Assembly: GCA_017461985.1 (NCBI GenBank)
Contig: JAFTSA010000007.1
Coordinates: 2,250-66,249, forward strand
Reading direction: 5' to 3'
Length of the DNA: 64,000 nt
DNA from: Clostridia bacterium
GTDB taxonomy: Bacteria > Bacillota > Clostridia > Christensenellales > CAG-917
Shown here: in pieces, positions 18,913 to 62,114 of the stretch
How positions within the stretch are numbered: position 1 is the stretch's first letter
How the letters are laid out: every line of letters starts with the position of its first letter
Notes under the pieces: model-generated
The model's input: the letters and a program-made list of their open reading frames with translations, nothing else
What the model was told of the DNA's origin: nothing
Databases searched by the model: none
Translations under genes and position numbers: made by a program

Positions 18913-18959
18913 GCCCTCTCAGGGCGAAAACAAAAGCAGCCAATAAGGTTGCTTTTTAT

Positions 18960-19220
18960 TTGTCTTGCAACGCAAGACAAGTGATATTGTGGCAGAGCCA
19001 CAGTTATATTCACTTCGTGAGTTATATGTCCTACGGACGTGATATTCACCTTCGGTGAGTTGTGGTTATGTGGCGTGACGTACACGACACGCCTATTTCA
19101 TCCTTAACTGCAAACATAGTGAGCAATATAACTGGCGAAGCCAATATAACTTCTTGCTTGCAAGAAATATAACTGCTCAAAGAGCAATATCACTTTGCAA
19201 AAATCTTGTATTTTTGCAAA
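18960..19220. repeat. Inverted hairpin/linker array element, empty copy
   Basis: Left arm: linkers GTKATAT x4 plus GTTGTGG separated by mini-hairpins. Right arm: CCTTAAC plus ATATMAC x4 separated by hairpins. No ORF between the arms. Confidence 0.85.
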
Positions 19221-19221
19221 A

Positions 19222-19252
19222 TAAAAAGGCAGTCCGAAGACTGCCTTTTTTA
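19222..19252 (-). terminator. Intrinsic terminator of the 766-aa lipoprotein gene
   Basis: AAAAAGGCAGTC-CGAA-GACTGCCTTTTT. Confidence 0.75.
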
Positions 19253-21567: not shown

Positions 21568-21845
21568 AATTATCCTCCTATGAAAAACTTTGAGAGTATT
21601 TTTGTTTTGTTGATTTCTTTTGATGCTATTTCAAAACCACACTACCTATAAAACAAACGAGAGGGCGGTTTCGCCAACCAAACCCGAAAGTTTCCGATAA
21701 TAATGATTATGATTACATATATTATAGTATAGAAGATATTAAGTGTCAATAATCAAAATTTGCCAAATAACCAAGTTTTTTAGTAAACATAGTTCACAAA
21801 AAAGGCTCTTCATCAGTTATGACTGGACTTGTCAAATTTTGATCA

Positions 21846-21935
21846 GTTATATTTGTCTTCGACAAGTTATATTGTGGCACGCCACAGTTATATTGCCTTC
21901 GGCAGTTATATTTCTCTCTTTGAGAGAAGTTGCGG
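21846..21935 (+). repeat. Hairpin/linker array, left arm (GTTATAT x4 plus GTTGCGG)
   Basis: GTTATAT ttgtc-ttc-gacaa GTTATAT tgtggc-ac-gccaca GTTATAT tgcc-ttc-ggca GTTATAT ttctctc-ttt-gagagaa GTTGCGG. Confidence 0.9.
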
Positions 21936-22012
21936 ATTATTTTTCACATTTTATGTTTCTATAAATAAAAAACTCACTCCCCTGTTTGAGGATTGTGAGC
22001 TTTTCAATTTTT

Positions 22013-22369
22013 CTATTCAATTTCCGCTTTTGATGTTTTGCAGGCACTTATAAGCATTCTTCTTATAGTTCCACAATCAGCAACAAGTTTCTTATATTTT
22101 GCCTCTGCGATATAACCCGTTTCAAACATGAGTTCAAGCCAATATTCGCTTTCATAGCACTCTTTTAGTGCTATTTCTAACTTAGAAACAAAATCTGCCC
22201 CGCTTTGGGCGTATTGCGCCTCGCTCAAGTTTGCTCCTATGCTTGTTCCGGCGCGCAAAAGTTGACCTGTCAAGATATATTCTCTTTCTTGAGATTGTAC
22301 GTCTTTCACCAAAAAGATAATTGCTTTTGCAAATTCCTTTGCGCGTTCTCGTGTTGAAATTTCAGTCAT
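22013..22369 (-). CDS. Four helix bundle protein (23S rRNA intervening-sequence protein / Avd-like family)
   Basis: QLLRAGTSIGANLSEA...SGADFVSKLEIALKECYESEYWLEL signature, 118 aa. Confidence 0.92.
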   Translation of the reverse strand: MTEISTRERAKEFAKAIIFLVKDVQSQEREYILTGQLLRAGTSIGANLSEAQYAQSGADFVSKLEIALKECYESEYWLELMFETGYIAEAKYKKLVADCGTIRRMLISACKTSKAEIE

Positions 22370-22394
22370 TATTTTCCCTTCTTATCACTAATAA

Positions 22395-22475
22395 CCTTAA
22401 CTTGCCAAAGGCAAATATCACTTGCGGAGCAAATATAACTGCGAAGCAATATAACTCGCTGAAAGCGAATATAAC
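22395..22475 (-). repeat. Hairpin/linker array, right arm (inverted)
   Basis: On +: CCTTAAC ttgcc-aaa-ggcaa ATATCAC ttgc-gga-gcaa ATATAAC tgc-gaa-gca ATATAAC tcgct-gaa-agcga ATATAAC. Confidence 0.9.
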
Positions 22476-22481
22476 TGACTA

Positions 22482-23183
22482 TTAATAGCCACCACGGATT
22501 GAGAGGACTTCTCCTGTGATGTAGTCGGCGGAAAGCAAAAACATAACCGCTTCTGCAACCTCACTGGGTTTTCCAAGTCTGCCCATAGGGATTTCTTCCA
22601 CAAAGGCACGGAGTTCATCATCGGTGTAGGTCTTCATCATATCCGTGTCAATAGCTCCGGGAGCCACTGCATTGACGGTTATGCCCATAGGCGCAAGTTC
22701 CTTGGCAAGGGCTTTGGTGAGGCCTATGACGCCTGCCTTTGATGCGGAATAATGAGTTTCCATGCTAGCCCCGTCCGTGCCCCACATTGAGGACAGGTTG
22801 ACAATCCTGCCATATCCCTTTGAAATCATGCCGGGGACAACCTCCCTTGTCACAAAGAAAGTGCCGTCCAGATTGACACCTATCATACGATGCCAGTCCT
22901 CATCGGTTATGTCTTGGAAGAGTTTGTCTTGGGCTATGCCTGCATTGTTGACAAGGAGGTCAACTCCGCCCATATCCGCCTTGATTTTGGCAATCAATTC
23001 CTTCACCTGAGCGGAAGAGGACACGTCACATTGGTAGGCCTTTGCGCCCACCTCTTTTGCCAAATTTTCGGCCTTTTCCTTGTTGGTGACGTAGGTGAAA
23101 GCCACCCTATACTTGCCTACGGCAAGACGTACGATGGCCTCCCCTATCCCACGGCTTCCGCCAGTGATAAGAATTGTTTTCAT
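22482..23183 (-). CDS. SDR oxidoreductase, FabG/YmfI-like
   Basis: TGGSRGIG, NNAG, YSASK. Confidence 0.88.
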   Translation of the reverse strand: MKTILITGGSRGIGEAIVRLAVGKYRVAFTYVTNKEKAENLAKEVGAKAYQCDVSSSAQVKELIAKIKADMGGVDLLVNNAGIAQDKLFQDITDEDWHRMIGVNLDGTFFVTREVVPGMISKGYGRIVNLSSMWGTDGASMETHYSASKAGVIGLTKALAKELAPMGITVNAVAPGAIDTDMMKTYTDDELRAFVEEIPMGRLGKPSEVAEAVMFLLSADYITGEVLSIRGGY

Positions 23184-23184
23184 A

Positions 23185-24603
23185 TTATTCTGCTTTTTCT
23201 GCCTCTTCTTTTGCCGCCTTGTCTGCATCGTTCATGAAACCGAGCATTGTGGGTTCATCTGCGTCTGCAAGGTCTGCTGCGTAGAGATAGTTGTAGTTTT
23301 CGCTGTCAAAGAAGAACATTGTGCCGTCAACAAATTCAACGTTGAGCCAGTTGGTGACGATGCCTGCTTCGAGGACGACCTTTTCATTGGCGCTTGCATC
23401 AAGTTTTGCTGCGTAGAGTTTGCCACCAGTTGAATCAGTGTAGTACACTGTGCCGTCAAGGACGTATTGGATGGTGATTGCTCTACCGATGACAAGGTTT
23501 TCAGTTGTGTCTGCTTCTGCGGTTGTCACAAGATAGGTCTTGTTTGCGCTGGTTGACACAAGTGCGCCAGCATTGTAGCCGAGAGGATACACTGTTGACA
23601 GTGCTGTGCTCTTTGAAAGGTGCTTTTCAGTTGTGACGTCAAAGTCTCCGCCAAATGCAACTTTGTTGACAAAGAGGCCTCTGCCTTCTTCTTGGCTGTT
23701 GATGTAGTTTGCCTTGTTGTAGTAGAGGGTGACACCGCCATCTTCAACGACCATATCGATGAGGTTGAAACTGAAGACCTTGGTGGGGAAATAGTCAACG
23801 TAGTTTTCCTTTTCATTTTCTGCAAGATAGGTGAGTTTGTCAGCAAGGACTTTCTTGTCTGTGCCGTCGTACTTCACTGCGTTCAAGGTGTTGCAGAATT
23901 CATAGCTTTGGTCACCGGTGACTGTTTCGGTGTAGTAGACATAGTCACTTGCATAGTCCCAAAGCACTGTTTCAACGTTTTCAAGGAAGACACCGCCTGT
24001 GACGCCCTTTGCGTTGTCACTGCTCTTTGTTGTGTCCATACCGCTGAAATCGATATAGTTGACGGTGGTTGCGCCTGATGCCATGTAGAGGATTCTTGAA
24101 GGTGTAAAGAAATATCTGCTGCTACGGCTGTTGATGGTTGCGATGAGTTGAGTCACACTGCCGTCAATCTTTGTGCGCATAAAGTCGGTGTGGGTGGTTG
24201 ATGCAACACCGCTCTTGTCCATGTCGTTGTTGGGGGTTGCATAGTAAATCCATTCGCCGAAGATTGCAAAGCCGCCGTCTGCGTTTTGGTTGTACACTTG
24301 CTTGGGAACAACCACGACTGCATCTGAGTAAGTGCCGTCTGCGTTGAGTTTTGCTCTCACGATTGCGTTTTTGACGGGGGTGCCCCAGGTGTTGTCCACT
24401 GTGGTGTTGGTGTCATAACCATTGATGAAATAGACGTATTCGCCTTGCTTGACGTAGTATCCGCCATTTGATTCAACTGCTGCGTCGGGGTTTCCGCCGC
24501 CGATTGAATTCCATTCAAACTTGTTGCAACCGACGAGAACTGCGGTGAGGACTGCAACGAGAGCCACGATGGCGATGATGCTGACTAAATGTTTCTTGTT
24601 CAT
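23185..24603 (-). CDS. Lipoprotein, probable beta-propeller (DUF5050-like)
   Basis: Lipobox LVGC; repeated YVYF / WIYY / YVYY / VYYT strands. Confidence 0.7.
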   Translation of the reverse strand: MNKKHLVSIIAIVALVAVLTAVLVGCNKFEWNSIGGGNPDAAVESNGGYYVKQGEYVYFINGYDTNTTVDNTWGTPVKNAIVRAKLNADGTYSDAVVVVPKQVYNQNADGGFAIFGEWIYYATPNNDMDKSGVASTTHTDFMRTKIDGSVTQLIATINSRSSRYFFTPSRILYMASGATTVNYIDFSGMDTTKSSDNAKGVTGGVFLENVETVLWDYASDYVYYTETVTGDQSYEFCNTLNAVKYDGTDKKVLADKLTYLAENEKENYVDYFPTKVFSFNLIDMVVEDGGVTLYYNKANYINSQEEGRGLFVNKVAFGGDFDVTTEKHLSKSTALSTVYPLGYNAGALVSTSANKTYLVTTAEADTTENLVIGRAITIQYVLDGTVYYTDSTGGKLYAAKLDASANEKVVLEAGIVTNWLNVEFVDGTMFFFDSENYNYLYAADLADADEPTMLGFMNDADKAAKEEAEKAE

Positions 24604-41634: not shown

Positions 41635-41680
41635 AATTGGTGTCCGCAATCTCTCTTTTGAGTGCGAACATTTCAAGTAC

Positions 41681-42003
41681 ATGTCCCCCTTCCTCACGTG
41701 TTTCCCCCGTTTGCTATCCGCAAAACCCTTCGGGTGGGGAACTCGACGCGATTGACTTCGTAGCAATCGCTATTCCGTCGCTTTGCTCCTTACGGCTCTC
41801 GCACATTAAGCGGCGTCGCCTCATTATGCCACTTGTTGCGTTGGTGCAAAAAAAATCAGAGCGCACCCGCAACTTCGTACTCTCGTCTGGTGCGACGCGA
41901 TTGACGGCTTTGCCGTAGCAATACGCTCTTCCGTTCCTTACGGCGCTCCCTTCCTCGTCGCCGCTGCTCCTCGCGTTCCGTCACGCAACAAGTAAGTGCT
42001 TGT
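41681..42003. repeat. Structured dispersed repeat, copy 1 (MITE/REP-like or ncRNA)
   Basis: Long near-identical blocks shared with 61836-62114, with covarying stems. Confidence 0.85.
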
Positions 42004-42034
42004 ATAAGTACGCTTTTAATAGACCATACGTTTC

Positions 42035-61752: not shown

Positions 61753-61835
61753 AAATGCGCTAAATCGCGAATAGTATAAAAAGCACTCTATAATTGAGTG
61801 CTTTTTGTTTGGATAGTGCATATACACTTAAGAAT

Positions 61836-62114
61836 ATGTCCCCCTTCCTCACGTGTTTCCCCCTTCTGCCATTCGGCAGAGCCCTACGGGCAGGGCAACA
61901 CTCGGCTCTCGCACATTAAGCGGCGTCGCCTTATTATGCCACTTGTCGCTTTGGTGCAAAAAAAAAAACAGAGCGCACCAGCGACTGCGTACAAATTCTG
62001 GTGCGACGCGATCGACGGCTTTGCCGTAGCAATACGCTCTTCCGTTCCTTACGGCGCTCCCTTCCTCGTCGCCGCTGCTCCTCGCGTTCCGTCTTCGAAC
62101 AAGTGAGTGCTTGT
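61836..62114. repeat. Structured dispersed repeat, copy 2
   Basis: Homologous to 41681-42003, same orientation. Confidence 0.85.

Follow-up and report, generated by a model that had tools for sequence, protein, structure and literature searches.

A four-helix-bundle gene enclosed by inverted Gut-1-type heptamer arrays forms a polymorphic cassette in a Clostridia genome

Genes of the four-helix-bundle family PF05635 come with arrays of 7-nucleotide (nt) repeats far beyond chance, and they do so in several phyla. The case at the centre of this study lies in a 64,000-nt stretch of a Clostridia bacterium genome (Christensenellales, CAG-917; contig JAFTSA010000007.1, positions 2,250 to 66,249; hereafter ‘the window’), in which a 118-amino-acid (aa) member of the family is flanked by two inverted arms at 21846-22475. 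Each arm consists of heptamer linkers separated by mini-hairpins, and in this lineage such hairpin-spaced heptamers make each arm a probable copy of Gut-1 RNA (RF01706), an orphan motif already described in Rfam. The arms and the gene family are thus known, and the recurrent pairing of the two, together with its extension to inverted heptamer arrays in other phyla, is the new part. We found no paper tying Gut-1 or heptamer arrays to PF05635, save for the heptamers of Coxiella, in a search that left supplements and the older cyanobacterial literature outside. The explanation we favour, and to which we give about an even chance, is a polymorphic cassette of the intervening-sequence (IVS) type residing outside rRNA, whose inverted, cassette-specific heptamers would be read by its own PF05635 pentamer, probably in single-stranded form.

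Architecture of the cassette

The family gene (22013-22369, minus strand) stands between two arms of five 7-nt linkers and four perfect mini-hairpins each. Within the left arm (21846-21935, plus strand), GTTATAT recurs at 21846, 21866, 21887 and 21905 and is followed by the inner linker GTTGCGG at 21929-21935; the stems of its four perfect hairpins measure 4-7 base pairs (bp) and the loops 3-4 nt. The right arm (22395-22475, minus strand) reads, on the plus strand, CCTTAAC (22395-22401), ATATCAC (22415-22421) and ATATAAC (at 22433, 22449 and 22469), and counts among its four perfect hairpins the GCGAAGC-type unit tgcgaagca. On the gene's own strand it is a sense arm—GTTATAT three times, GTGATAT and GTTAAGG—situated between the stop codon of a fabG-like gene and the ribosome-binding site of the family gene. 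By the Gut-1 model, the left arm has its sense on the plus strand; a transcript of the gene would carry this arm in antisense form, past a terminator. Direct reading of the sequence bore out the arms, linkers and hairpins of the initial annotation to within 1-2 nt. The terminator-like hairpin that it had placed between gene and left arm is likewise present: a consensus scan located an intrinsic-terminator-like hairpin with a T run (21967-22003, minus strand) directly 3′ of the gene's stop codon, with its stem at 21992-21978 followed by GTGAGTTTTT and an outer CTCAC/GTGAG stem over ~21967-22003.

GTTATAT occurs 19 times in the window (both strands), as compared to a mean of 2.98 and a maximum of 9 in dinucleotide shuffles, none of 100 of which reached 19. 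Inverted repeats I1-I3 (25-32 nt, 79-84% complementary) enclose the IVP-family open reading frame (ORF) in a potential closing stem. Folding the whole cassette as RNA paired the two arms together, with a minimum free energy of -190.9 kcal/mol (z = -9.7; 0/20 shuffles equal). The element is not inserted in 23S rRNA: its flanks are short-chain dehydrogenase and lipoprotein genes, and Rfam returned no rRNA match in the region.

The enclosed gene encodes a member of the IVP family

The 118-aa product is a four-helix-bundle protein of the 23S rRNA IVP type, matching PF05635 (E 2.6e-27; 95.6 bits against a cut-off of 33.8) and NCBIfam TIGR02436 (107.7 bits, cut-off 24), and a Shine-Dalgarno-like AAGAAGGG lies 5′ of its gene. 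AlphaFold2 modelled four helices (residues 6-28, 32-51, 57-83 and 89-117) at a mean pLDDT of 95.7. In a Foldseek comparison, the model aligned to 2rld (BT_0352) with TM 0.89/0.97, a root-mean-square deviation of 0.6 and 46% identity, and it also superposes on XCC0516 (2gsc). Five chains were deposited for each of these two structures, and a homopentamer is cited for the Xanthomonas family protein (PMC4990558). The conserved polar motif of PF05635 is made up of Q36, R39, S43, N47, E50, D59, K63, K69, E70, E73 and W77.

The PADLOC and PHROGs libraries held no match for the protein. Neither a reverse transcriptase (0 PF00078 matches) nor a Y1 transposase (0 PF01797 matches) was found in the own genome, which is 98.5% complete, in agreement with the earlier view of a cassette that lacks a recombinase of its own. 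Two candidate assignments were ruled out on this basis. An accessory role in a diversity-generating retroelement (DGR) is contradicted by the missing reverse transcriptase and by the lack of template and variable repeats, and a repetitive extragenic palindrome (REP)/RAYT system by the absence of the Y1 transposase, the flanked gene being a four-helix bundle.

The arms match Gut-1 and are dispersed through the genome

Gut-1 goes back to a report of 2010, which found it in human gut metagenomes and considered it a probable non-coding RNA; the main text gives neither function nor host, and there Weinberg et al. class it among RNAs ‘unaffiliated with mRNAs’ (PMC2864571). The Rfam model matches the right arm at 22410-22477 (minus strand; 43.0 bits, E 2.4e-6) and the left arm at 21844-21916 (plus strand; 33.8 bits, E 5e-4). 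None of the window arms (43.0, 40.9, 33.8 and 32.7 bits) reaches the gathering score of 50, which four sister arms of the genome do exceed (56.2, 53.2, 52.5 and 51.0 bits); scores among relatives go up to 88.9 bits. Alignments of the window arms span model positions 1-77 with all three hairpins, the linker being GUUAUAU/GUGAUAU, not GUGAAAU.

At E ≤ 0.01, 24 arms match Gut-1 in the 1.4-Mb genome, most of them gene-less. They are arranged in seven two-arm elements and about ten single arms, and only in the studied element is a gene enclosed. Exactly four GTKATAT linkers plus an inner GTTGNGG-type linker make up 17/24 arms, and no arm exceeds four. That the hairpin sequences all differ, as first noted, is true within the element; genome-wide, however, the 93 linker-bounded units amount to 56 distinct sequences, in which about a dozen stems return with differing loops, and hairpins recur between arms.

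One gene-less two-arm element (18960-19220, no strand assigned) lies 2.6 kb from the gene cassette, and some 15 more sites are spread over the genome, so that the arrangement is not peculiar to the gene. It comprises a left arm of GTGATAT, two GTTATAT, GTGATAT and GTTGTGG, a 37-nt centre and a right arm of CCTTAAC, three ATATAAC and ATATCAC, with one outer hairpin per end. Gut-1 matches it at 19001-19065 (plus strand, 40.9 bits), and its RNA folds (z = -6.65 on the plus and -6.08 on the minus strand) contain long-range linker pairing. The consensus scan placed a terminator-like hairpin at its left end (18932-18956, plus strand) and another, bidirectional one composed of A run, stem and T run at its right end (19223-19250, plus strand). 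Arms mostly adjoin terminator-like hairpins similar in sequence to each other, and the gene that ends next to a single arm runs in the arm's direction in 9-10 of 10 cases. One two-arm element (C2:135747-135925) occupies the gap between two co-directional genes of an apparent operon, 16 nt downstream of the first and 30 nt upstream of the second; there is no terminator, and it must therefore be transcribed.

A back-up terminator role of the arms was considered and dropped: hairpin plus U-rich GUUAUAUU was flagged as terminator-like, but other linker types are not U-rich. G/T linker variation between arms was likewise discarded as evidence for pairing, because it falls at the same inner position in both arms, each being a copy of one consensus.

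The second family gene of the genome, a paralog (C2:132549-132854), has a linker type of its own (TATGTAATC / GATTNCATA), which recurs at three other sites. At its locus (L007; C2:132100-133300), the gene comes after two tRNA genes, then 2-3 near-identical units of ~130 nt. These units end like the 3′ part of the adjacent minus-strand tRNA and resemble the tRNA-end duplications left by integrating elements.

Arrays accompany family genes in related Clostridia

Gut-1 matches were present in 16/61 genomes, including the own one and 10/11 further members of the genus; a genome from another family contained 50 of them. PF05635 was detected in 13/61 genomes: 10/16 of the Gut-1-positive genomes carry the gene, as opposed to 3/45 of the others, a difference between kin genomes that we used as a lead only.

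Searching one genome per species with 16 aligned family proteins of the relatives gave 80 loci, all from gut or rumen Clostridia metagenome-assembled genomes (MAGs). A strict detector required three or more occurrences of an identical 6-mer, spaced 13-32 nt apart, and in every gap a perfect hairpin whose stem was 4 bp or longer; for loci without individual listing, gene coordinates were set to 1501-1845. By this measure, 40/80 loci have an array no more than 350 nt from the gene, at a density of 0.90 per kb near the gene against 0.08 in the far flanks and 21 per 1408 kb across the whole own genome. Reading 19 strict-‘negative’ loci revealed most of them to carry arrays of imperfect units. A relaxed detector (at least two hairpins bounded on each side by an identical 5-mer, in windows within 300 nt) returned arrays upstream of 68/79 genes—one locus being too short upstream—and downstream of 9/77, compared with 5/137 far flanks and 43/2000 random windows of the own genome. 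The enrichment of arrays beside four-helix-bundle genes, named in the initial annotation as one test of its idea, is thus clear (68/79 upstream vs 5/137 far-flank and 43/2000 random). Among ten relatives' loci that were read, arrays occurred in all but L017; L017 and L021 carry tandem heptamers.

The family genes of relatives are located inside linker-hairpin arrays or directly 3′ of them, and the linker varies by locus, each paralog having a heptamer of its own: GTTATAT, GTGAATT/TGAAT, GATGAAATC, ATATGATAT, AATTATG, GTGAAG, GCGATAT, CACAGT, CATAATG and GTGATGT were all observed. GTKATAT-type linkers accompany 13/14 loci whose protein is at least 60% identical to the 118-aa protein, and 2/66 below 60%. 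Linker type is thus passed on with the protein clade: gene and array type keep together in MAGs that carry different family labels. All gene-adjacent linker types that were searched recur elsewhere in their genome (G000, G002, G003, G004, G006, G008 and G011). A strict pairing of one type per genome was rejected, given that the GTKATAT arrays of G002 lack an adjacent gene and that G011 has many TGAAT arrays and its gene beside ATGAAAT.

A gene enclosed by the arms, as in the window, is the less frequent layout and is also seen at L008, L020, L045 and L094. More commonly, a tRNA or gene end is followed by terminator, sense arm, short centre, antisense arm, promoter (TTTACT, 17 nt, TATAAT), ~6 nt and ATG. 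Array and gene come directly after a tRNA gene and terminator at L054, L059, L076, L077, L107, L014, L016, L018 and L021; the tRNA-adjacent placement of many loci suggests a preferred neighbourhood or an integration site. At L009 (G054:C52) and L012 (G012:C19), a single in-frame TAA stands where relatives have Glu or Tyr and the arrays are intact, and these two family genes are likely pseudogenes.

Plain heptamer arrays extend the association to other phyla

Sampling across the phylum identified the PF05635 family in 55/301 genomes, and 28 of 30 returned loci were used, two being contig stubs. Hairpin arrays were rare in this set (4/28 loci). Period-7 tandem arrays, in contrast, were found upstream of the gene in 12/28 and downstream in 8/28 loci, vs 3/55 far flanks and 17/1500 random windows. 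In the cases read (L117, L119, L126 and L138), the downstream heptamer is the reverse complement of the upstream one, and the heptamer array of the G119 gene has no second occurrence in that genome. One locus (L143; G221:C1:159194-162514) is an intervening sequence within 23S rRNA, with short repeated CGAGGTGTGA-like words before the ORF. The same genome harbours four identical family genes; the flanks of the fetched one, L143, are 23S rRNA, which makes this a classical IVS present in each of the rRNA operons. The 23S IVS of Coxiella has GACAGAT heptamers before its ORF, and the IVS was long ago proposed to be a mobile element, with its ORF serving in mobility (PMC4990558).

On plasmids, eight loci picked from 32 homolog-bearing records to span phyla (L147-L154; Spirochaetota, Cyanobacteriota, Chloroflexota and Bacteroidota) showed period-7 arrays upstream in 8/8 and downstream in 7/8. 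The hosts were Treponema, Nostoc, Dolichospermum, Planktothrix, Euhalothece, Gloeocapsa, Chlorohelix and Chondrinema. Repeated upstream 7-mers recur in reverse-complemented form downstream in 8/8 of these loci, often touching start or stop codons, and the upstream array of the Treponema plasmid runs to about 40 heptamers. Plasmid cassettes were seen between co-directional genes of apparent operons, namely between RND efflux adaptor and permease and between a helicase-related protein and an N-6 DNA methylase; a further one is placed between the genes of a DUF1156 protein and a Swt1-family HEPN protein. One heptamer at L150, on the Planktothrix plasmid, is of the CCCCAAT type, which we take to be the classical cyanobacterial STRR1 tandem heptamer. 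A ‘three-frame stop’ role of the heptamers was rejected: many contain a stop codon, but AGGAGAC-type arrays contain none. Arrays beside PF05635 genes might also be picked up by CRISPR-array finders (compare a figure legend in PMC10910872).

The cassette is an insertion/deletion polymorphism

We compared 6.9 kb around the site with congeneric genomes to look for empty sites. Invariable presence at this site in relatives had been named in the initial annotation as a refuting condition; G002, G006 and G011 lack the cassette at the fabG-lipoprotein junction, and a metatranscriptome contig joins 21762 to 22501 (skipping 21763-22500; content between ‘not known’). In G002, the closest relative (97% identity on the fabG side), the alignment runs to ~21762 and resumes at 22484; 112 nt, including a fabG terminator, take the place of the about 720 nt of the own genome. 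The left half of the terminator-like A-run and stem seems to be retained at the site. The gene-less element varies as well. A contig from a public run joins 18953 to 19211 (skipping 18954-19210), with 4 nt common to both sides and the content between again ‘not known’; in G002, a foreign GATTTCATC-type arm is nested at the element's centre and one hairpin unit is swapped, and in G006 the element is cut down to two or three outer units.

The fabG-like short-chain dehydrogenase gene (22482-23228, minus strand; Pfam adh_short_C2, E 4.5e-65) ends with its stop codon 7 nt from the right arm, and its own terminator, present in relatives, is absent here (comparison with G002 and G006). At the other end, the downstream lipoprotein gene has a sigma-70-type promoter with a perfect 12/12 consensus (TTGACA-17-TATAAT; 21721-21749, minus strand; consensus scan), which lies just outside the cassette at the left limit of the variable segment, the homology to G002 stopping at ~21762. 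No promoter match was found between the right arm and the ATG of the 118-aa gene. Since the gene thus lacks a promoter of its own between arm and ribosome-binding site and the fabG terminator is gone, transcription from fabG probably extends into it, which would make the sense arm its leader. Contigs of metatranscriptome libraries (Logan) cover 21792-22181 and 22293-22513; they may stem from DNA carry-over and give no strand, ends or level.

Loops and folds point to a single-stranded function

Hairpin loops are strongly biased on the strand with G-rich linkers: triloops of the form T..C number 70/124 and those of the form G..A 1/124, with 31/58 and 2/58, respectively, for tetraloops (arrays whose repeated 6-mer had equal G and C were left out of this count). 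T/G is the first flanking pair in 88/205 hairpins. The conserved hairpin potential with changing sequence, the strand-biased loops and folds far below those of shuffles together point to a function in single-stranded form. As to which strand and which nucleic acid, the Rfam model and the U.G pairs that would be possible favour the G-rich strand, as RNA. The GNA/GNNA loops of the other strand, in turn, would form very stable DNA mini-hairpins.

Relation to known systems

The closest known system is the 23S rRNA IVS with an S23p/IVP ORF, as in Leptospira, Coxiella, Brucella and others. It encodes the same protein family, and its ORF lies within inverted repeats predicted to form a long stem; its presence is patchy, a mobile origin has long been suspected, and in Coxiella heptamers precede the ORF (PMC4990558). 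The cassette differs in its place between protein-coding genes rather than in rRNA helix 25 or 45, in arms whose heptamers are broken by mini-hairpins instead of forming a continuous duplex, and in the gene-less arms dispersed through the genome. With Gut-1 (RF01706), a motif found in gut metagenomes, the arms share at least three short hairpins separated by a G-U-G-A-A-A-U-like linker, although the two arms of the cassette fall below the gathering score (43.0 and 33.8 bits) because their linker is GUUAUAU. Gut-1 was described as a free-standing non-coding RNA, and the main text of that description contains neither arm inversion nor multi-copy spread nor a link to PF05635 (PMC2864571).

Avd, the DGR accessory protein and a pentameric, RNA-contacting ring, shares the four-helix-bundle fold with the 118-aa protein (TMq 0.76 to 4dwl). 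Identity is only 12-13%, however, the genome lacks a reverse transcriptase as well as template and variable repeats, and the protein bears its own PF05635 polar signature. REP/REPIN repeats with RAYT genes also have a single-copy gene between inverted, structured short repeats that occur in other intergenic regions near terminators; the repeats differ from one gene variant to the next and may be retained where the gene is absent. Unlike RAYT, a Y1 HUH nuclease, the protein studied here has no known catalytic fold, and its repeat is a heptamer-hairpin array, not a single imperfect palindrome. TRAP is a parallel only, a ring oligomer that binds one short repeat per subunit along wrapped single-stranded RNA; its fold is unrelated (an 11-mer beta ring), and its repeats differ in length and spacers. 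A miniature inverted-repeat (MITE-type) transposon would be expected to show terminal inverted repeats and target-site duplications at polymorphic sites; inverted arms are present here, the fabG site is a replaced segment without duplication, and the joint 18953/19211 shares 4 nt.

A model for heptamer recognition

In the explanation we favour, the arms would act as single strands, most likely of RNA. Where both arms are transcribed, complementary heptamers could zip and close the cassette in a stem, which here would take the shape of a ladder of junctions with protruding hairpins. RNase III cuts such closing stems in 23S rRNA intervening sequences. We envisage the heptamers as the recognition units of a protein ring, with one protomer pocket per repeat and the hairpins as rigid spacers, a picture modelled on Avd, whose pentamer touches a single RNA stem-loop through an identical set of residues in each of its five protomers (preprint 10.1101/2023.10.23.563531). 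A ring that takes one heptamer per protomer would explain why linkers are conserved, why hairpin sequences are free to vary and why each paralog has a private heptamer. Gene-less arrays could be non-autonomous derivatives or landing pads on which the protein acts in trans. A broader proposition, which we put forward tentatively and hold to be less than likely, is that PF05635 proteins are sequence-specific heptamer readers that, together with inverted arrays, form a widespread class of selfish cassettes without recombinase in transcribed spacers and hairpin loops (rRNA helices, operon spacers, terminators). The 23S IVS, Gut-1 and some cyanobacterial heptamers would then be one system, in which every variant has its own heptamer.

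The initial interpretation, a mobile cassette or protein-nucleic-acid module, is supported in part. It survives as far as array enrichment, empty sites and the lack of a recombinase are concerned; its five linkers are no general rule, and the arms turned out to match a known motif, Gut-1, and to be mostly gene-less. A pentamer that reads five linkers fits the 4+1 linkers of most own-genome arms, but elsewhere the repeat number varies between 3 and about 40, which speaks against 5:5 as a general stoichiometry. This is one of several points that weigh against the favoured explanation. Arrays persist without the protein, for 6/16 Gut-1-positive genomes have no PF05635 gene, including G005 (99% complete) and G026 (98%), and G002 has 21 matches to the GTKATAT pattern and no gene beside that type. 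At the fabG site, no target-site duplication is visible, and the segment is replaced rather than cleanly inserted. The good terminator between gene and left arm means that both arms may rarely share one RNA, and what RNA evidence there is consists of assembled metatranscriptome contigs that are possibly DNA-derived. Loops on the antisense strand are GNA/GNNA, which speaks for single-stranded DNA no less than for RNA. The commoner layout, a two-arm element upstream whose last linker abuts the promoter, suits a DNA operator as well as or better than an RNA leader. Finally, the array detectors are heuristics made for this analysis, and the plasmid loci were a selection.

GNA and GNNA loops of the GCGAAGC type are a hallmark of very stable DNA mini-hairpins, and an element working at the level of DNA is one rival to be weighed. 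The arms would then serve as single-stranded DNA hairpin arrays or extruded cruciforms in replication or repair, and the protein as a DNA-binding accessory or repressor that occupies the heptamers beside its own promoter and, with host enzymes, furthers the copying of arrays into new hairpin loops. The GNA/GNNA loop bias on one strand (70/124 and 31/58), combined with the stability of GCGAAGC-type hairpins in DNA, fits such an element, as do the array upstream of and abutting the -35 box of the gene's promoter in most loci and the new material at two-arm centres—the gene here, the foreign arm in G002, the 260-nt repeat described below in several copies. The window terminator, too, separates the arms on RNA. 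Yet no nuclease, recombinase, Y1 transposase or reverse transcriptase was found for it (PF00078 and PF01797 at 0 in the own genome), and the sole solved nucleic-acid complex of the fold, in the account of the preprint (10.1101/2023.10.23.563531), is with RNA. The homologous 23S rRNA element is also described as acting as RNA (PMC4990558), and the covariation-built Rfam model uses the other strand, on which alone U.G pairs are possible (T/G as first flanking pair in 88/205). On balance, we regard a DNA-level element as rather unlikely.

That most arms have no gene nearby, that nearly all directly follow gene-end terminator-like hairpins with outer hairpins similar in sequence, and that arrays exist in genomes without the gene would also be expected of REP-like housekeeping repeats or of Gut-1 small RNA genes, which would stabilise 3′ ends or insulate convergent genes; the filing of Gut-1 as ‘unaffiliated with mRNAs’ in the main text of Weinberg et al. 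2010 (PMC2864571) is in line with this. The four-helix-bundle gene would then be an unrelated small selfish gene with a tendency to land in the arrays or be hit by them, and there would be no recognition between protein and repeat. We deem this improbable, as chance co-location cannot yield 68/79 vs 2-4%, and it leaves unexplained the private heptamer of each paralog, the linker type that follows the protein clade (13/14 vs 2/66), the unique heptamer array of the G119 gene and, in other phyla, the plain heptamer arrays right beside start and stop codons. The constant position of the array 5′ of the gene, abutting the promoter or forming a leader, could alternatively indicate pure autoregulation, in which arrays are operator or leader for the protein's own synthesis, much as in the textbook case of TRAP, a ring protein reading short leader repeats, and dispersed copies are functionless, decaying debris. 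This account seems highly doubtful to us: it leaves the protein without a function beyond itself, the dispersed arms keep perfect hairpins and a uniform linker count (17/24 with exactly four GTKATAT, none with more), and neither the orientation bias of the arms nor the downstream inverted arrays are explained by it.

Implications

The association links two orphans: PF05635, widespread and with solved structures but no known function outside retroelements, and Gut-1, listed in Rfam since 2010 with neither function nor partner. If the protein reads heptamers, the nature and spread of intervening sequences, a question thirty years old, could be tested directly using a 118-aa protein and an 80-nt nucleic acid; a role would be found for a very common ‘hypothetical’ gene; and the natural, programmable match between a small ring protein and a 7-nt code might prove attractive as a tool. 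Even if it does not bind them, an annotation rule follows: tandem or hairpin-spaced heptamer arrays mark cassettes, including insertions in operons (efflux, restriction/defence). The cyanobacterial STRR repeats may possibly be linked to the PF05635 family.

A separate dispersed repeat

A repeat of ~260 nt is present in about 28 copies genome-wide (72-97% identical), of which two lie in the window at 41661-42013 and 61830-62114 (C5:43910-44262 and C5:64079-64363). The copies tested matched no Rfam family. Its membership in the arm system was considered and rejected, most copies being away from arms, and we treat it as a separate repeat. At C2:52193, C5:101832, C9:129391, C9:84283, C6:15824 and C8:61683, copies are found at the centre of, or beside, Gut-1-type arms.

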